Shown: positions 17,476 through 63,821, counted from the first letter of the stretch. The stretch is DNA of 64,000 nt from Candidatus Zixiibacteriota bacterium (GCA_024280775.1 JAJRPM010000015.1:4599-68598); one strand, 5' to 3'. The notes: a model not told the origin generated them from the sequence alone. Made by a program: numbers and translations.

Positions 17476-19347
17476 TCAGGAGGTTGCGAGGCTGGCCTTA
17501 ATCTGCTCGGCCAACGTAGTTGATACACCGGAGGTCTCGGCAAGTTCCATAATTGAGGCCTCGCCTATTTGTTTCACCGAGCCAAATTTCTTCAGCAACG
17601 CCGCGCGTTTCGCGGGGCCAATCCCCGGGATTTCATCCAGCTTTGAAGTGATTGTGCGCTTCTTACGAATAGCGAGATTATACTTAACTCCAAACCGATG
17701 CGCCTCGTCACGAACCTGTTTCAACAGCGCCAGCGCTGGCGCGGCTTTCGGAATAGTTATCGGTTCGGAATGATCGGGAAAATAGACCTCTTCAAGCCGT
17801 TTGGCTAATCCAATAATCAATTGGTTCTCAATCCCCAACGATTTCAATTCCTTTACGGCAGTGTTCAATTGTCCTTTACCGCCATCAACCACAACCAGGT
17901 CTGGGAATTCCTTCTTCTCTTCTTTCAAGCGGAAAAAATAGCGGCCGATAATCTCACGCATCATCGCAAAATCGTCCTGACCGGTTACACCCTTGATTTT
18001 GAACTTGCGATACTCACGTTTGAGCGGTTTGCCTTTGCGGAAATAGGACATTGAACCGACTGCGTCGGTCTCTCCGGTGTTGGATATATCAAAACAGCAA
18101 ATAGAATTTGGGGCTTTCTTCAATGATAATTCTTTCTGTAAAGACGACACCATCGGGGCGATCTTCTCTCGATAGCCGTGCTTTTGCACTAGAACTTCAC
18201 CAAGGAGCAATCTCGCATTCGATGCCGCCATCTCAACTAGACGGAGCTTCTCCCCTCTCTGCGGCGATGCGACTTTGACTTTTTTCCCGCGTTGTTCCGA
18301 GAGCCAATCAGCAATCAAAGACTCATCTGGCAGTGCGAACGGCAAATACACTTGCTCAGGCAAATTAGGCTGGTGATTGTAATACTGACTGAGGAATTCG
18401 CGTAGCACTTCCTCACTGGTCGCCAACTCACCCGGCTTGATGCGAATATCCTGACGACCAATCATAGCGCCTTCGCGGATTTGTAAGACAACCGCTACGG
18501 CTTCACGTTCACTTTCATCATAGGCCAGAGCGACAATGTCACGATCGACATTCTCACCGCTATCGACCTTTTGTCTCTCGGTTATGGTTTTGATTCCGGC
18601 GATTTGGTCGCGCAGTTCTGCGGCGCGCTCATACTCTGAAAGTTCAGCGGCTTCGCTCATCTTAGCTTCCAGATCACGCACAAGCTTATTGCCTTTACCC
18701 GATAGGAACAGCAACAACGCATCGACTGATTCCTGATAACTCTCAACTGACTGAAAATCCTCACAGGGACCACCACAACGCCCAATTCGATAATCGAGAC
18801 ATACTTTGTATTTGCGCCCCTTGGGATGCGGTATCACCAAATCGCAGGAACGAATTTTCAGCAATCGGCTAATGAATCTGATAGTCCGACGCATCGACAT
18901 CGCAGATGTATAGGGACCAAAATATTTTGCGCCATCATTATCAATTTTACGCACCACTACAATTCGGGGAAACGCCTCCTGCACTGTCACTTTGATATAG
19001 GGATAATGTTTGTCGTCTTTTAGCGCGATGTTGTAGCGTGGCTTGTGTTCCTTGACGAGATTCGCTTCAAGTATCAGCGCCTCCATCTCGTTGTCAGTGA
19101 CGATGATTTCGAGATCGGCGATTAGTGACATCAGGCGAGCAGTTTTTGTCTCACGGGAGCCTTTGCTTTGGAAATAGGTGCGTACCCGGTTCTTTAGTGA
19201 CTTGGCTTTACCAATGTAAATCACTTTGCCGGCTTTGTTCAGGAAGAGGTATACGCCCGGTCCGCCTGGAAGGTTTTTGAGCTTTTCCCTGACGAGCTTG
19301 TCCTGCGAAGAAGGCTTCTTAGATGTAGATTCGGAGGTGGATTCCAT
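17476..19347 (-). CDS. uvrC: Excinuclease ABC subunit C
   Basis: GIY-YIG (GVYLF..IYIGKAK), FDISN, VDGGKGQ, RDEAHRF, C-terminal HhH; start set at MESTSE to avoid overlap. Confidence 0.96.
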   Translation of the reverse strand: MESTSESTSKKPSSQDKLVREKLKNLPGGPGVYLFLNKAGKVIYIGKAKSLKNRVRTYFQSKGSRETKTARLMSLIADLEIIVTDNEMEALILEANLVKEHKPRYNIALKDDKHYPYIKVTVQEAFPRIVVVRKIDNDGAKYFGPYTSAMSMRRTIRFISRLLKIRSCDLVIPHPKGRKYKVCLDYRIGRCGGPCEDFQSVESYQESVDALLLFLSGKGNKLVRDLEAKMSEAAELSEYERAAELRDQIAGIKTITERQKVDSGENVDRDIVALAYDESEREAVAVVLQIREGAMIGRQDIRIKPGELATSEEVLREFLSQYYNHQPNLPEQVYLPFALPDESLIADWLSEQRGKKVKVASPQRGEKLRLVEMAASNARLLLGEVLVQKHGYREKIAPMVSSLQKELSLKKAPNSICCFDISNTGETDAVGSMSYFRKGKPLKREYRKFKIKGVTGQDDFAMMREIIGRYFFRLKEEKKEFPDLVVVDGGKGQLNTAVKELKSLGIENQLIIGLAKRLEEVYFPDHSEPITIPKAAPALALLKQVRDEAHRFGVKYNLAIRKKRTITSKLDEIPGIGPAKRAALLKKFGSVKQIGEASIMELAETSGVSTTLAEQIKASLATS

Positions 19348-19366
19348 TGAAGTAGGCGCCTTTTTC

Positions 19367-19981
19367 CTAGCGGCCTGTATGCTTGGAGCTCTTGGATTTT
19401 GATTCTTCGACGAATACGACTCTGCGGGCGCTATGGTAGTATTTGCGCCAGTAGGAAGCGCCGAGCTTGGCAATTACCACGCCACGACTCGAGGAAGCAT
19501 GAATAAAACGTTCATCACCAACATAGATACCGACATGCGATACAGTCTTACCGCCAATAGCAAAAAACACAAGATCGCCATAGCGCAAATGACTACGAGT
19601 GACAAGCTCACCTGCCCCAGCTTGGTCACGCGCCACTCGCGGTAGTCTTAGTCCGTTGTAGCGACGATAAACTTCTGACGTAAACCGACTGCAATCGAGC
19701 CCCTCCTGGTATTTTGAGGCTCCCTGATAGGGCGCGCCCAAATACTCCTGTAGCAATCTCCCGAATTTATCCTGCTCAGTTGTACTCCATGGCCCAATCG
19801 AATACGGTCCCGAAAGCGGGCTGGCTGGAGTTTGCTTGCGCATAACTTTTCTCTTGGGCTCTTCATTGCGTCCTGAATCGGAAACTCTACGACAAGAGAC
19901 AACACCAGTGAGCGCAAGCGCCAATACTGTCACTATTACAGTTGTACTAAATATCTTGTTCTCAGCTTTTTCCATATCCAT
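19367..19981 (-). CDS. NlpC/P60 family peptidoglycan hydrolase lipoprotein
   Basis: Lipobox VVSC; GAPY..G...LDCS; GDLVFF; HVGIY; FIHASSS. Confidence 0.9.
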   Translation of the reverse strand: MDMEKAENKIFSTTVIVTVLALALTGVVSCRRVSDSGRNEEPKRKVMRKQTPASPLSGPYSIGPWSTTEQDKFGRLLQEYLGAPYQGASKYQEGLDCSRFTSEVYRRYNGLRLPRVARDQAGAGELVTRSHLRYGDLVFFAIGGKTVSHVGIYVGDERFIHASSSRGVVIAKLGASYWRKYYHSARRVVFVEESKSKSSKHTGR

Positions 19982-23516: not shown

Positions 23517-24006
23517 TCCAGCGAGGCTGAACAATCGCGCAAAAACGGAATTACTTTTGGTTTTTCTTCTAATATGAAGCAACAAAATCACCTTCTCTAT
23601 TGCCATTGACGCAGACTAATTAACGCGCAACACCATGCGTTACAGCTCTTTATACACTCTAACAGTTCAATTGACCCCTGTAAATAATTCAGCGGCGCTC
23701 AAGAAAAGTTTTATATTGCGCGTCGCATTTGCGAATTATTAGTTATATTAACATAAAGGAGGAGGTCTACTCCCTTCCGCGAATCATATCTTGTATTGCA
23801 ACCTTGACGTGTGGCCAGTTTAAGTGAGCGGGTGAGTTGGGCATTTCTTGATGCGCCATATTTCTCGGCGCTCTTCTTTGTGTTCGCGCCATGTTCACGC
23901 TCTCTTGTGCGCATAGTGTTGTACTTTTGTTGTACGAATACGAGTCGAAAAACAAGCCCATGCTGTTGCAATACGCGCGCAAGCGCAAAACCCTCTGGAG
24001 ATATTT

Positions 24007-31846: not shown

Positions 31847-34024
31847 TTATCTGAACAATGACAAGACTCCCTGAGGAATCTGGTTTGCCTGGGCAAGCAT
31901 CGCGGTGCCGGCCTGGACCAGAATCTGGTTCTTGGTGAACTCAGACATTTCCTTGGCGATATCAGCGTCACGGATATTCGACTCTGAAGCGGTCAAGTTC
32001 TGTGAAGCGATACGCAAGTTACGCAAGTTGGATTCCAGAGTGTTTTTCTGGAAACTTCCAAGCGTTCCACGTGTGGTGGAGACTTCGTCAATCGCGGCGT
32101 CGATGATAGCTAGGGCGTCTTGCGCTCCGGCTGTTGATGTGACATCGATGTTGGAAAGGCTTCCAAACATGTTACCGGCGATATCCTTACCAAGAGACTT
32201 GGCAGCCATACCACGGAGACCGATTGAAGCAGTCTGACCAACTGATCCACCAATTTGGAAGACAAGTGACTGGTCAGTGTTAAAGATGGTTTCGGTTCCA
32301 CCAGTTGAAGCCAGGCCATATCTCAACTTTATTGATTGAGTGCGGTCGGCAGTAAAGATAACTGAATCTTTACCAGCGGTGACTGAAGTCGCCGGGCCGG
32401 CGTCCAAACGAACGTCAAACTTTGCGGCTTTGGCGTCGAGCAACAAGTTACCGACGTTGATACCGGTCTGACCATTGGCAATCGCCATCTTGACAGTGCC
32501 CATATTGGCTGTGCCAGTTGCCGCATCCTGCAAGGTAACGGTGCCGGTGGCGCCATATTTGACAGAACTGATTGTGTTAGTGAAGTTGTTGAAACTCACC
32601 AATGCGTCAGTTCCGGAATTTGCAGTAGTATCGTTAGTCAGATTCAACACATTCTCAAGATCGCCAGTGGCAAGGCCAAGAGCATTATGCTTGATGGTGT
32701 ATGATGAACCCTCGTCACGAGTGGCAAACTCAATCTTATCGCTAGAGGCGCCTGTGACTGTCGAAATGATGTCGTTGGCTGTGTTATCACCCTGTACTTT
32801 TGCGAAAGCTGTTCCCAACGCGGTGTTAATGGCAGTGTTGAGCGCCGCCACTGAGGTATATGCGCCGTTTGCAAGAGTTACAGCAGATGTAGCTCCTGAG
32901 TTTGAGGCGGTGCTGACTGTGAAGTTCAAAGTATTGTCTGAAACACCACGGTCGGAGGTATTCGCGGCAAAAGTGAAGTAGTTGGCAGTTGCATCATTGG
33001 AAGCTGATGAAACTTTGAAGGAGTAATTGGCTCCTTCATTAACTGCTTCAAAACGAAGGCTGTTGGTGTTGATTGCTGCGGAAACCTTACCCTGCAATGA
33101 TGTATTAGCAGTGATAGCGGTTTGGAACTTGGCGGCAACCTGGGCTGAAGTGTCACCAGCTACGAGGGCTACTGTCAAAGTCTGGTCACCAGTGGTGGCT
33201 TCGCCATTCTCCTGATAGTTGATAACGACGGTATAGTTACCGGCGGTTGAAGCATCAACTGTAGCGGCGCCAACTGTAGCGGCTGAATCAACATTGGCTT
33301 TGTCCGCTGTGGCGGCCAAGGTCAATGTATTTGCGAACGCATCAGTGATTTTCACTGAGCCGGAGGTTTTCTTGGCGACATCGGAGGCCTGAAGTACGTC
33401 GATATTGTGAATCTTCTCTTCAAGGTTTATCGGTGTGCCATTGCCGACCAAAGACAGGCCGAGCGACGTGGTGTTCAATGTCGCGGTAGCGTCAGAGGTT
33501 TTGGTGGCAGTGATAGAATGTGTGCCAGATTTCAAACCGGACTGCACAACTGAAATACCGGCGCTGTTTGCGCTGGTGATGGTTGCGATATTGTCTTTGG
33601 AACCGTCAAGCAACTTCTTGGTGCCAAACTCAGTATTCGCGGCGATACGATCGATCGTCTTCAAAGCGTTTCCAATTTCAGCCTGATCAGCGGCGAGCTG
33701 ATTGACATCGTTGAAACCTTCGTTAGCGGCATGAATCGCCAGCTCTCTCATGGAGACGAGCAATGAGTTGATTTCAGTCAATGCGCCCTCAGCAGTTTGG
33801 ATCATGTTGATTGATCCCTCTGAGTTGTCAATCGCACGGTTGAGACCGGCAATCTGAGCGCGGAACTGTTCGGAGATAACGAGACCAGCCGGGTTATCGG
33901 CGGCTCTGTTGATGCGGAAACCTGAGGACAATTTCTCCATTGATTTGGAGAGCATGTTCGATGAATTTGCGAGGTTTCTGTTCGCGTTTAACGCGGCTAT
34001 GTTGTTGTTAATACGAAGCGCCAT
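31847..34024 (-). CDS. fliC: Flagellin (725 aa, large Thr/Ala/Ser/Asn-rich variable region)
   Basis: MALRINNN, LSSGFRINRAAD, QTAEGAL; C-terminal ESNIRDADIAKEM, MLAQANQ.PQ.VLSL. Confidence 0.97.
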   Translation of the reverse strand: MALRINNNIAALNANRNLANSSNMLSKSMEKLSSGFRINRAADNPAGLVISEQFRAQIAGLNRAIDNSEGSINMIQTAEGALTEINSLLVSMRELAIHAANEGFNDVNQLAADQAEIGNALKTIDRIAANTEFGTKKLLDGSKDNIATITSANSAGISVVQSGLKSGTHSITATKTSDATATLNTTSLGLSLVGNGTPINLEEKIHNIDVLQASDVAKKTSGSVKITDAFANTLTLAATADKANVDSAATVGAATVDASTAGNYTVVINYQENGEATTGDQTLTVALVAGDTSAQVAAKFQTAITANTSLQGKVSAAINTNSLRFEAVNEGANYSFKVSSASNDATANYFTFAANTSDRGVSDNTLNFTVSTASNSGATSAVTLANGAYTSVAALNTAINTALGTAFAKVQGDNTANDIISTVTGASSDKIEFATRDEGSSYTIKHNALGLATGDLENVLNLTNDTTANSGTDALVSFNNFTNTISSVKYGATGTVTLQDAATGTANMGTVKMAIANGQTGINVGNLLLDAKAAKFDVRLDAGPATSVTAGKDSVIFTADRTQSIKLRYGLASTGGTETIFNTDQSLVFQIGGSVGQTASIGLRGMAAKSLGKDIAGNMFGSLSNIDVTSTAGAQDALAIIDAAIDEVSTTRGTLGSFQKNTLESNLRNLRIASQNLTASESNIRDADIAKEMSEFTKNQILVQAGTAMLAQANQIPQGVLSLFR

Positions 34025-51684: not shown

Positions 51685-52419
51685 CTACAGCTGAGTTCTA
51701 CCCACATCATTGATGAGCCTTCCAAGCGACTCATCCTGAGTCTGAAGAGCTTTCGAGTCTGCTTCATAGTTTCTATAGCTCGAAATCATCTCCACCATTT
51801 GCATTACTACATCTACATTTGAGGATTCTATGTATCCTTGACGCACTGCGAAATCCAGCGCCGCGGTTAATTCGACTCCTTCGGGGGCCTTGTATTTGCC
51901 CGGACGGACTTTCTCAAGCGTTGTAGGATCATCGACTATTACCACTGACAAACGACTTATCTCTTCGCCATCAACTGACACTATTCCATCGTCTGAGATA
52001 CTCACTTCACCTTGCGGCAACTGAATCGGCCCGCTATCACTTTGAACCATCTCTCCGTCGGTCGTTACGAGAAACCCTAATCCATCACGAGTGAAGACAC
52101 CATCGCGAGTCAAAGCGTTTTCTCCTGCGGCGTCCTGAGTTACGAAGAAACCGGGACCGTCAATGGCGATATCCATCGGATTGCCAGTTTGGTCGAGCGA
52201 ACCCTGTCCGTAGTCTGTGTAAACTTGATCCAGCATCGGTCTTTCCCAATCAGACTTACGTGGCAGGTTGTTGATCTGCGCCCTTCCTAATTCTGACATG
52301 AAGACTGAGTCTTTCTTAAAACCCGGTGTGGAAGCATTCGCTATGTTGTTGGCGATTACTTCCTGTTGCCTGATGCGCGGTATCATCGCTGATGCGCTAT
52401 TGTATATTCCTTTTATCAT
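51685..52419 (-). CDS. flgF: Flagellar basal-body rod protein
   Basis: MIKGIY, ANNIANASTPGFKKD, TRDG, ESSNVD; GGAGG RBS. Confidence 0.9.
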   Translation of the reverse strand: MIKGIYNSASAMIPRIRQQEVIANNIANASTPGFKKDSVFMSELGRAQINNLPRKSDWERPMLDQVYTDYGQGSLDQTGNPMDIAIDGPGFFVTQDAAGENALTRDGVFTRDGLGFLVTTDGEMVQSDSGPIQLPQGEVSISDDGIVSVDGEEISRLSVVIVDDPTTLEKVRPGKYKAPEGVELTAALDFAVRQGYIESSNVDVVMQMVEMISSYRNYEADSKALQTQDESLGRLINDVGRTQL

Positions 52420-52445: not shown

Positions 52446-52462
52446 TGCAAGGAGGGCGCCGA
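52446..52462 (-). promoter_or_regulatory. sigma54 -24/-12 promoter of flgFGAHIJ
   Basis: Minus strand CGGCGC-CCTCC-TTGCA (GG-N10-GC). Confidence 0.75.
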
Positions 52463-52639
52463 CATTGCGTAATTGTAGCTATGGCGTTGTGTAAGTGGCG
52501 GTTACACGAATCCAAAAAGAGGCGTTCAGACTAGATATCTCCGGGAGACGGAAATATTTTCGGTTGAGTCAGGAAAACTCTACCAAGGGGTGGATTGGAT
52601 GTATTGATTGGGTGAATTGCTTGTAGTTGTAAGACGGGA

Positions 52640-52867
52640 CTACTTCAGAGCCAGGTTTTGGTCTTCGGCTCGCACTTTGTCGATCAGAGAATTCATCGCG
52701 CGATCAAAATCCTCGTCCGATAGCATCTCTCGGTTTGAACGCAGATACAAAGCGCAGTCAGCTTTGAATCCGTAGCAGTTTAGCGCATCAGCTAAATAGC
52801 AACAGCGAATATAGGCGCAACGTTCATGACGTTTAGCAATGGTTGGATTGGCTCGGACCTGTTCCAT
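52640..52867 (-). CDS. Small Cys-rich hypothetical protein (75 aa), probably sigma28-driven
   Basis: MEQVRAN...CAYIRCCYLADALNCYGFKADC...; ATG lies 8 nt after a GCCGATAA box. Confidence 0.65.
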   Translation of the reverse strand: MEQVRANPTIAKRHERCAYIRCCYLADALNCYGFKADCALYLRSNREMLSDEDFDRAMNSLIDKVRAEDQNLALK

Positions 52868-52875
52868 ACTTAGAA

Positions 52876-52902
52876 TTATCGGCCTCTTCTCTACATTGTT
52901 GA
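52876..52902 (-). promoter_or_regulatory. sigma28 promoter of the small Cys-rich gene
   Basis: Minus strand TCAA-N15-GCCGATAA (perfect -10). Confidence 0.75.
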
Positions 52903-53326
52903 GGTTTTGTTGATCTTCAAGTTTGGAGATGTGCTGGGCTATCTGAATACGCATGGATTTGCAGAGTAAAATCTGTGGATTCGCAGACTGCTCCAGCAAT
53001 GAGATATTTTAGCCATTTTTCTCCCAGAATCTCATGGGCTAATAGGTTATGAGACTTGCACTTAGCGAGCCTGTTGAAAAATGTGCCGCGATATGGCGTG
53101 AAATCCTTCGAAATAGCGCTATCTTTGCTCTGAGGGTCTCCGAAGTCCATCGCGTGGCTGCCTGAATTGTCGCGGTAATTGCCAATATTTTTTCTGATTG
53201 CCGTTAGAATCAATGCCGCCACGCCAAAATACAATGCTTCAATTTTGCTGGAGAGATGTATTCCGTTGATACAGACGGAATCAGAACGAATGGGAGATCG
53301 CAAGTGTTGAGCAACGAGGAATCTTT

Positions 53327-54745
53327 ATGGTAGGACCGACATCAAACTACAATATTGGCCCAAAGGCCGCGCGCTCTGAGGCTCATGAGGCTTCGCCGCA
53401 TAAGACAATAGCGTTTGTCTTTGCGTTGTTGAGCTTCGCACTAGCATTGGTCAGCTTCCCTATTGACGCCAGCGGGTCTGTTCTGGGTGGAAACGTTTCA
53501 GACCCGGGGATTCCTGATACAGTCAGAATTGACTCAGTGGATGGCCTTCGCGGTGGAGCTGTTGTCGTTCCGGTGAATTTCTTCGCAGACGAAACTCTCG
53601 GAGGACTCACTCTCGTTTTGCGCTTTGATCCGGTAGCGCTGATTCTTGACTCTGTATCGTTGGCGGGGACGCTTGCCGAACCATTTTCGATTAGAATCTT
53701 CAACATTGATTCAACGACCGGTATTCTTGATGGAGCCGCTCTAAGTTTTGACAGCGCCAATGTAATACGACCCGGCTCTGGGGTTTTGGCAAATCTGCAT
53801 TTTACTGTGTCAGATTCAGCGGCGGCAGGGGTCTACCTCATTGACACTACTACAGTAGACCCACCGGGGCCTGCTTTTTTGCAGACATCTTTCAGCACAG
53901 TTCAAACTGATTCTATTAACGGCAATGAGACAGTGCTGCCGACTTTTGTAGCCGGCTCTATTACAGTTGCAGACCGCGCCGCGACTTTCGATTCGGTTTG
54001 GGTAGACACAGTCACTGGCGCTCAGGGCGAGACAGTCACTGTGGATGTGTTTCTACACAACGAGTTGCCACTGACTATAATTAAGATTCCTCTGAGATAC
54101 AGTTCGCCCAAGCTTCTTTTTGACACGGTTCTTTTTGCAGGCACACGCGGGATTCTTGCCGGGCAATCACGTCAAAGCCAGGTCAATACTGATTCGCAGG
54201 AGGTGCTCATCACACTAGAGTACCTGGATAGCTCCCCATTGACACCGGGTGACGGCCCGATAGCGCGTCTGAGGTTCACAATTGACAATACTGCCCCTAA
54301 TGACACTTTCTCGATTGACAGCGCCGCTTACCTGGGAATTGTGCCACTCGAGCTAACAACAACCATCGCTGACGGATCTTTTCGATTTACACCATTTTTC
54401 CATCCAGGAGCGATCATCGTTGACTTTAGAACTGATGTGGATGACGGCGAGAACCCCAATCTTCCGACTGAATTCAGACTTAGGCAGAATTTTCCGAATC
54501 CTTTCAATCCGACTACTAAGATAGGATTCTCATTGCCGCGAGGCTCAGAGGTGTCACTCGAAGTATATAACTTGTTGGGGCAAAAGGTTCGTACTTTGGT
54601 AAACGGGTATCGCCAAGCTGGGGACTATACAGTGGAATTTGATGGCTTGAGTGACAGAGGCTCAACCGTCGCATCAGGTATGTATTTCTATCGAATCAAA
54701 ACCGCCGCTAGAACCGAAACGCGCAAGATGACACTGTTGAAATAA
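53327..54745 (+). CDS. Secreted protein with two cohesin-like domains and a FlgD-Ig/T9SS-type C-terminal domain
   Basis: Signal peptide; repeated D.V.(I/V)D.V.G..G..V.V.V modules with PG.G..A.L.FT; tail FRLRQNFPNPFNPTT..YNLLGQKV..SGMYFYRI..KMTLLK. Confidence 0.85.
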   Translation: MVGPTSNYNIGPKAARSEAHEASPHKTIAFVFALLSFALALVSFPIDASGSVLGGNVSDPGIPDTVRIDSVDGLRGGAVVVPVNFFADETLGGLTLVLRFDPVALILDSVSLAGTLAEPFSIRIFNIDSTTGILDGAALSFDSANVIRPGSGVLANLHFTVSDSAAAGVYLIDTTTVDPPGPAFLQTSFSTVQTDSINGNETVLPTFVAGSITVADRAATFDSVWVDTVTGAQGETVTVDVFLHNELPLTIIKIPLRYSSPKLLFDTVLFAGTRGILAGQSRQSQVNTDSQEVLITLEYLDSSPLTPGDGPIARLRFTIDNTAPNDTFSIDSAAYLGIVPLELTTTIADGSFRFTPFFHPGAIIVDFRTDVDDGENPNLPTEFRLRQNFPNPFNPTTKIGFSLPRGSEVSLEVYNLLGQKVRTLVNGYRQAGDYTVEFDGLSDRGSTVASGMYFYRIKTAARTETRKMTLLK

Positions 54746-63794: not shown

Positions 63795-63821
63795 GCATCG
63801 GCGCTCAAAATTTGAACTTTA
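63795..63821 (-). promoter_or_regulatory. sigma28 promoter of motAB
   Basis: Minus strand TAAA-N15-GCCGATGC. Confidence 0.8.

Follow-up and report, generated by a model that had tools for sequence, protein, structure and literature searches.

The question raised by this locus is what a small cysteine-rich open reading frame (ORF) encodes, and how it is expressed, when it lies immediately behind a promoter-like sequence inside a flagellar gene cluster. The window (the whole 64,000-nt stretch of Candidatus Zixiibacteriota DNA analyzed here) contains, on its minus strand, TCAA at 52902-52899, a 15-nt spacer, the octamer GCCGATAA at 52883-52876, the sequence TTCTAAGT and an ATG at 52867-52865. 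The 8 nt of TTCTAAGT between the box and the ATG include no GGAGG-like run. Translation of the ORF at 52640-52867 (minus strand) gives 75 residues and a TAG stop that ends at 52640. A 27-nt promoter-like pattern 8 nt before the ATG of a 75-aa ORF had been described in a sequence-only reading of the window, and it is indeed present in that form. Our preferred reading, to which we assign a probability of roughly 0.6 on the basis of sequence comparison, is that this is a Zixibacteria-specific, FliA-dependent and mostly leaderless gene, and that its product is a small, probably metal-binding protein with four Cys that serves as an accessory or regulatory factor of the late flagellar stage. The features concerned are as follows.

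52899..52902, minus strand: TCAA, the -35-like element of a putative sigma28-type promoter; the equivalent columns are conserved in 83 aligned loci of leaderless arrangement
52876..52883, minus strand: GCCGATAA, the -10 box, an exact match to the sigma28/FliA consensus octamer
52865..52869, minus strand: the ATG (52867-52865) together with the expected transcription start (about 52867-52869), which is predicted from the distance to the box
52640..52867, minus strand: coding sequence of 75 aa plus TAG, based on translation, codon differences and relatives in 120 of the 285 genomes of the phylum
52754..52819, minus strand: the core with four Cys, residues 17-38 (RCAY...CYLA..L.C.GYK.DC), its Cys near-invariant over 120 genomes
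52661..52717, minus strand: predicted C-terminal amphipathic helix, residues 51-69, based on AF2 models and on the conserved F54, A57, L61 and I62

According to Pfam scans and the window ORFs, the small Cys gene is contained in a flagellar cluster on its own strand, with fliF-fliG-fliH-fliI-fliJ upstream and flgF-flgG-flgA-flgH-flgI downstream. The minus-strand order before it is motA, motB, two rod-like ORFs with flgC, fliE and then fliF to fliJ, and a plus-strand gene for a cohesin/type IX-tail protein (53327-54745) lies between fliJ and the small ORF. It is followed by flgF (51685-52419), flgG, flgA, flgH, flgI, a gene for a rod-binding protein, flgN, flgK, csrA and flgL, beyond which the window holds glycosyltransferases and a 725-aa flagellin. 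A sigma54-like GGCGCC-N4-TTGCA (52460-52446, minus strand) and a GGAGG precede flgF. The terminator scan at the locus found no terminator-like hairpin 3' of the small Cys ORF, and thus its transcript may continue into the flgF region. Just upstream of the promoter there is also a 128-aa ORF (52917-53303, minus strand) with no Pfam or NCBIfam match. Its same-genus similarity is patchy (27 aa at 59% and 78 aa at 35%), which leaves it an uncertain gene.

Sequence comparisons indicate that the small ORF is almost certainly a real conserved protein. A six-frame profile search of all 285 Zixibacteria genomes detected relatives in 120 of them, distributed over six GTDB families (designated f1, f2, f3, f5, f9 and f16): 4/4 genomes plus the window's own genome in f1, 78/108 in f2, 6/14 in f3, 18/21 in f5, 4/6 in f9 and 9/10 in f16. 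The same search detected none in fourteen other Zixibacteria families, including the sister family f4 (0/33), and the 700 nt upstream of flgF in 26 f4 loci contain no comparable small Cys ORF. Relatives were also retrieved by a word-indexed search (12, at 64-97% identity) and by exhaustive phmmer against 1.84 billion representatives, which gave 27 matches at E <= 0.001, one of them spurious. The spurious match, P0030 (1373 aa), was considered as a longer form of the protein and rejected as a repeat protein. P0038 (170 aa), the only longer relative, was likewise rejected as a fused or longer form, since it is an over-extended ORF call, and it provides no informative fusion. A pattern scan of one genome per species across 185,579 species yielded 86 relatives, and the 80 loci that were kept are all among the 120. 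The family therefore appears to be confined to Zixibacteria, as far as the scan pattern reaches. The source names seen for its members are all "hypothetical protein" or blank.

Codon differences are consistent with selection on the protein: 44 synonymous and 8 non-synonymous differences separate the window's gene from that of the same-genus genome G156, with which its coding sequence is 72% identical in DNA, and the corresponding numbers for G155 are 34 and 12. Upstream starts at 52954 or 52999, which the sequence-only reading had named as the alternative to the short ORF, lose their appeal because the open frame in G156 spans only 77 codons and family conservation starts at about residue 12, so that the longer frames are unconserved. 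Nor are the homologues found mainly in non-flagellated genomes, as all of them belong to a phylum in which FliA is present in 275/285 genomes. Among the checks proposed earlier, the homologue search was productive, and co-occurrence with fliA turned out to be uninformative given that near-ubiquity. In the maximum-likelihood protein tree (117 distinct sequences and 67 columns, with weak deep forks), f1, f3, f5, f9 and f16 each form one clade with support of 96-99, and the tree agrees with vertical inheritance accompanied by losses. A total of 165/285 genomes of the phylum lack the gene, while 275/285 have FliA. Judged by this absence, and by the f16 copy, which is located off the flagellar genes and has no box in 7/9 genomes, the Cys gene is an accessory one and no core part of the flagellum.

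We then consider the promoter. The sigma28 consensus is TAAA-N15-GCCGATAA. The octamer alone is unremarkable in the window (6 occurrences vs 2.1 expected; 6 were reached in 2/100 shuffles), and the whole 27-nt pattern TCAA-N15-GCCGATAA occurs twice vs 0.03 expected, a number reached in 0/100 shuffles. The other exact copy, at 17925-17951 (plus strand), is antisense inside a 665-aa minus-strand ORF (17476-19473) and is followed by no sizeable ORF; it is probably a chance occurrence or an antisense promoter. A sigma70 scan also flags TCAACA-16-GATAAT at the promoter site of the Cys gene, with 9/12 matches.

Comparison across the phylum places the box near the ATG in several families. The upstream region could be read in 119 of the 120 loci, each anchored on the first Cys codon (one locus is too short upstream). 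A strict box, [CTA]CGAT[AG], is located 7-10 nt before an in-frame start in 67/119 loci, and a relaxed box, CGA[TC]N, has the same arrangement in 16 further loci, which brings the total to 83/119. The strict box lies further upstream in 25/119 loci, and 11/119 have no box. The corresponding rates at 24,000 positions drawn at random from these loci are 0.97% (strict), 2.2% (relaxed) and 15.9% (box further upstream). The leaderless class is therefore enriched about 50-fold over random, and the class with a box and a leader is unenriched overall. By family, the leaderless arrangement is found in 5/5 loci of f1, 72/77 of f2, 3/6 of f3 and 3/4 of f9, and in 0/18 of f5 and 0/9 of f16. When the 83 leaderless loci are aligned on the box, they read cTCAa-TTTT...tGCCGATA. 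The -35-like columns, which played no part in locus selection, lie 15 nt upstream of GCCGATA and contain C in 53/83, T in 74/83, c or a, A in 64/83, and a. The hexamer-to-ATG distance is 8 nt in 66/83 loci and 9 nt in 14/83.

The f5 loci have a different layout. In 17/18 of them, a full octamer (GCCGATAA, TCCGATAA or GTCGATAA) stands at a fixed place and is followed by a leader of about 30-36 nt that contains an AGGAG or GGACGAG Shine-Dalgarno run. Three f3 loci resemble f5 in keeping the box together with a Shine-Dalgarno leader, and over both families the leaders span 20-36 nt. Since the box is common to leaderless and leadered loci, it behaves as would be expected of a promoter and not of a translation signal, and we consider it very likely that a sigma28 (FliA) promoter drives the Cys gene. 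In model systems, sigma28 transcripts begin about 7-8 nt after the -10 element. If this distance is valid here, the message would begin at the AUG or within 1-2 bases of it, and the geometry thus makes a leaderless mRNA probable. The arrangement can be set against canonical sigma28 (FliA/SigD) class-3 promoters, with which it shares the -10 octamer GCCGATAA, the 15-nt spacer and a T.AA -35 element. It differs from them in that the -35 element is TCAA (cTCAa in the family) and not TAAA, and in that the box is placed such that the transcript should start at the AUG, whereas in model organisms the leaders of late genes contain a Shine-Dalgarno site.

The genome also encodes FliA, with a score of 253 bits in the profile search vs a cut-off of 189.6. 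TAAA-N15-GCCGATAG precedes fliD-fliS, TAAA..GCCGATG precedes motA, and a GACGATAA box with a Shine-Dalgarno run lies ahead of a candidate flgM gene that is described below. A sigma28-like promoter, TAAAGTTCAAATTTTGAGCGCCGATG, is located at 63796-63821 (minus strand), at the called motA start, and the true start of motA is thus probably downstream of 63808. The 725-aa flagellin gene (31847-34024, minus strand) has no CCGATA-type box within 200 nt upstream, only ACGATAGT at -194; it follows that the sigma28 motif does not define the whole of this organism's late class.

Several further observations concern this regulon. The longest reading of FliA is 428 aa (G000:C1:400032-401318, minus strand; L040:1465-2751) with FlhG directly upstream, and about 185 of these residues form an N-terminal extension in which Lys, Thr and Ser are abundant; FliA frames of other Zixibacteria mostly span 252-330 codons. 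Nine further genomic sites match T.A.-N14-16-.CCGATA followed after 6-10 nt by the ATG of an ORF of at least 40 aa, including G000:C2:39333 (minus strand), C5:55698 (plus strand) and C11:~42886 (minus strand). Behind them lie, among others, the genes for an HDOD/HD-domain protein (463 aa) and a prepilin peptidase. Leaderless sigma28 transcripts may be a habit of the organism. A second small Cys protein, of 68 aa, is encoded at G000:C14:43529-43732 (plus strand; L211:130-333). This protein, which reads ...FKCC.VY.RIYL...FVGWCPKC...SP.GS..RFFTA, is found in 59/61 sampled genomes of the order, and a sigma28-like box 8 nt before its ATG occurs only in the three genomes of the window's genus.

The position of the Cys gene is conserved along with its promoter. 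Outside f16, flgF lies downstream in 103/104 readable loci (5/5 in f1, 72/73 in f2, 6/6 in f3, 18/18 in f5 and 2/2 in f9); seven loci were too short downstream and were left out of this count. The gap between the two genes is mostly 135-280 nt (median 163-221 nt), with three outliers of up to 1077 nt. The upstream neighbour is variable and may be fliJ, a type IX-secreted protein, biotin carboxylase or TPR proteins. In the nine f16 genomes, flgF is downstream in 0/9, and the Cys gene is located between a citrate-synthase-like gene and pgk-tpi-secG. Because the gene is absent from many genomes and its f16 copy is uncoupled, neither flagellar linkage nor sigma28 control is universal, as far as these comparisons extend. 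With regard to the spacer before flgF, a sigma54-type GGYRC-N5/6-TGCW is present in 62/103 loci, ending 22-27 nt before the flgF start, and 49 of 103 loci have the form TGGCAC-N5-nTGC[AT]. A second motif, GAAA-N4-8-TCC, occurs in the spacer of 76/103 loci vs 6% of shuffles and may be a candidate binding site for a sigma54 activator. In the window, the two sites are at 52446-52460 and 52550-52561 (both minus strand).

The protein itself is small (about 65-75 aa) and has a short, variable and basic N-terminus. In the window, Cys residues are found at positions 17, 22, 23, 31 and 38 (C-x4-CC-x7-C-x6-C), and the tail is EDFDRAMNSLIDKV, also given as EDFDRAMNSLIDKVRAEDQNLALK. Four of these Cys bear out the earlier expectation of a conserved pattern: C17 is kept in 118/120 genomes and C23, C31 and C38 in 119/120 each, the shortfalls being two gapped or truncated rows and one Tyr. 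The CC doublet does not hold, as C22 is present in only 12/120 genomes and is mostly replaced by Val or Ala elsewhere. The family signature is therefore C-x5-C-x7-C-x6-C and not C-x4-CC-x7-C-x6-C. In the 117-row alignment, seven columns are invariant (C17, C23, C31, G33, L40, F54 and I62), and Y19, Y24, A26, K35, D37, C38, Y41, N45, A57 and L61 are kept in at least 107 of the 117 rows (L61 in 113, A57 in 111). Lys or Arg occupies position 12 in 95 rows and position 16 in 109. The consensus consists of a core, (K/R)xxxRCAYxxxCYLAExLKCFGYKTDCPLYxKSNG, a variable linker and the helix FxxAMDxLIDKTxAK, one face of which is formed by F54, A57, M58, L61, I62 and V/T65. No signal peptide or membrane segment was found in the protein (Kyte-Doolittle values over 15 residues peak at 0.89).

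The AF2 models have low confidence (mean pLDDT of 57.8 with 36 sequences and 62.9 with 117), and the Cys region is their weakest part apart from the N-terminus, whose 8-12 residues are variable and poorly predicted. The C-terminal helix, at 51-74 and 51-69 in the two models, is the best-predicted part (pLDDT 72-79) and the only confident one. Foldseek with such a low-confidence model as the query returned nothing from the PDB at E <= 0.001, and VIA-align, with the same kind of query, reached a best Z of 3.0 against 48,161 chains. Neither the 75-aa nor a 119-aa reading matched a Pfam family at E <= 1, NCBIfam matched no family, the best hit of a PDB profile search was an unrelated chain with an E-value of 2.1, and the ESM Atlas gave nothing usable (best score 0.83, an unnamed cluster). 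Across Pfam, NCBIfam, PDB and fold searches, the protein thus appears to belong to no known flagellar or other family, in agreement with the earlier failure to assign it to any flagellar one. For solved Fe-S proteins in particular, such as ferredoxin, HiPIP, WhiB-like and CDGSH proteins, the PDB profile, Foldseek and VIA-align searches gave no match, which carries little weight given the poor model.

Going by the invariance of the Cys alone, we would guess that these four residues hold a metal site (an Fe-S cluster or Zn), and consider this reasonably probable. WhiB-like proteins, DksA/TraR zinc fingers and zinc-binding anti-sigma factors are small regulators with four Cys that act on the transcription machinery. 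The protein studied here is like them in its comparable size, its four invariant Cys and its potential docking helix. It is unlike them in its 5/7/6 spacing without CxxC or CxxC-x5-C and in having no Pfam match at E <= 1. The paired CxxC (or CxxH) knuckles typical of zinc-ribbon and zinc-knuckle proteins are likewise lacking: the conserved columns of the 117 rows include no CxxC, no zinc-ribbon model of Pfam matched, and the 5/7/6 spacing fits no metal-site family among those compared.

A small protein behind a sigma28 box in a genome with no match to the Pfam FlgM model (PF04316) might be a stand-in for the anti-sigma28 factor FlgM. This candidate was rejected, as a divergent FlgM is encoded at a separate locus of the same genome. 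In tblastn, seven Zixibacterial FlgM ORFs, chosen among weak Pfam matches, all match G000:C5:~203660-203850, with a best E-value of 1.5e-4. The ORF concerned (146 aa, G000:C5:203413-203853, plus strand; L209:3714-4154) ends in ...RVNSGFYDRPDVIDEIARRIIEGV, a C-terminus typical of FlgM, and aligns with Zixibacterial FlgM, for which 7/8 aligned sequences match PF04316. It follows fliD, fliS and a FlgN-like gene, and was overlooked by Pfam and NCBIfam. Many genomes carry both FlgM and the Cys gene, f16 and f9 providing examples, and in G035, G036, G072, G134, G149 and G151 the two lie on one contig at a distance of about 19-20 kb. Both proteins are small members of the flagellar regulon that probably have a sigma28-type promoter, and in both the N-terminus is disordered and the C-terminus helical. 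They are unlike in sequence and profile, the Cys family reaching a probability of 0.09% against an alignment of eight Zixibacterial FlgM in hhalign, and the core with four Cys is absent from FlgM.

In the preferred reading, these pieces would combine as follows. A vertically inherited Zixibacteria gene would encode a small soluble protein of about 65-75 aa with four Cys. RNA polymerase with sigma28 (FliA) would transcribe it from the -10 box ending 8 nt before the ATG, and in most lineages the mRNA would start at or beside the AUG, i.e., be leaderless. It would thus be a late-class gene of the flagellar regulon, held directly upstream of the putatively sigma54-driven flgF-flgG-flgA-flgH-flgI operon. 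The four Cys, amid conserved Tyr/Phe and often before Pro, are guessed to hold an Fe-S cluster or Zn, and the amphipathic helix is guessed to contact a partner, which would make the protein a small accessory or regulatory factor of late assembly or motor control. A regulatory or adaptor role in motility is tentative, and we would put it below even odds; the "feedback or redox-sensing regulator" suggested earlier is a guess. Quite unlikely, in our view, is its most specific form, in which an oxygen- or redox-sensitive Fe-S checkpoint factor is made only after sigma28 release and docks through its helix on sigma28 or on the sigma54 activator of flgF.

Other explanations have to be weighed against this one. 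The protein could be a general small metallo- or redox protein whose adjacency to flgF is historical and whose sigma28 promoter was acquired in some lineages. The f16 copy speaks for this, being well conserved beside citrate-synthase-like, pgk, tpi and secG genes, boxless in 7/9 genomes and never followed by flgF, as does the absence of the gene from most flagellated Zixibacteria. However, f1, f2, f3, f5 and f9 retain both the promoter geometry and the location ahead of flgF (103/104 loci with flgF; 83/119 with the leaderless box), and a neutral neighbourhood would not preserve a sigma28 box across the change from a leaderless to a leadered message; we therefore hold this explanation to be unlikely. 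A binder of a sigma factor or activator would provide late-stage feedback, for instance by acting alongside FlgM as another anti-sigma28 factor or co-regulator, or by counteracting the sigma54 enhancer-binding protein of flgF as an anti-activator. Since flgM is driven by sigma28 in model organisms, sigma28 control of the Cys gene would form a parallel, and its place directly upstream of the flgF sigma54 promoter, with a candidate upstream activator site, and its conserved amphipathic helix would also suit such a role. The lack of any relation to FlgM in hhalign and Pfam, and a separate FlgM gene here and in many other genomes with the Cys gene, make it very unlikely.

Still less probable is that the protein is a late substrate of flagellar type III export whose Cys form extracellular disulfides instead of a metal site. 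Flagellar export substrates do have variable N-termini without a signal peptide, which is what the variable and poorly predicted first 8-12 residues resemble, and the likely sigma28 timing would fit. Yet no export chaperone gene adjoins, the f16 copy is away from flagellar genes, and the Cys core, conserved and rich in aromatic residues, is more suggestive of a folded cofactor site. Finally, the peptide might be irrelevant, with the leaderless Cys ORF or the sigma28 promoter acting in cis on the flgF operon as an attenuator or read-through promoter. The absence of a terminator between the two genes and the Cys codons of an ORF that is leaderless by its geometry would allow this, and there is a precedent in mycobacterial leaderless polycysteine sORFs, which are very short, contain consecutive Cys codons, stall ribosomes and attenuate downstream genes (10.1101/834739). 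Our locus is like them in having a Cys-containing, probably leaderless ORF upstream of an operon. It is unlike them in that a 75-aa sequence is conserved as a protein, with strong purifying selection over its whole length, including G33, L40, F54 and I62 in 117/117 rows, and in that it has no run of Cys codons (at most two adjacent Cys, in 12/120 genomes). Moreover, in 62/103 loci a sigma54-type promoter belonging to flgF itself lies 22-27 nt before the start of that gene, and f16 retains the protein without flgF. A polycysteine attenuator ORF was thus rejected, given selection on the whole peptide, the lack of a Cys tract and the flgF promoter, and we regard any purely cis-acting role as scarcely credible.

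For the preferred reading of a FliA-dependent accessory or regulatory factor, neither the promoter type nor the notion of small accessory proteins of the late class is new. The protein family, its signature of four Cys and the conserved leaderless sigma28 arrangement are unannotated in Pfam or NCBIfam, and the titles and abstract openings of the literature on Zixibacteria flagella, leaderless FliA genes and small Cys-rich flagellar proteins contain no description of this protein. Flagellar hierarchies are among the best-studied cascades, and knowledge of them comes almost entirely from a few cultured phyla. If the product is an ordinary small metalloprotein, the finding would mainly serve to improve annotation and to provide the phylum with a sigma28 promoter consensus. 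An Fe-S cluster at the site of the four Cys, if true, would connect the motility of sediment anaerobes with redox conditions. A checkpoint factor, if that reading were true, would tie the change from middle to late flagellar genes to the redox state, a strictly leaderless mRNA would add a second, translation-level control, and an uncultured phylum would have supplied a class of flagellar regulator that is new. Promoter and start codon appear to have co-evolved, at a fixed distance of 8 nt, in over 80 genomes, and sister lineages have changed to a Shine-Dalgarno leader. The leaderless and leadered lineages may therefore offer a clean natural comparison of how the same gene is expressed.
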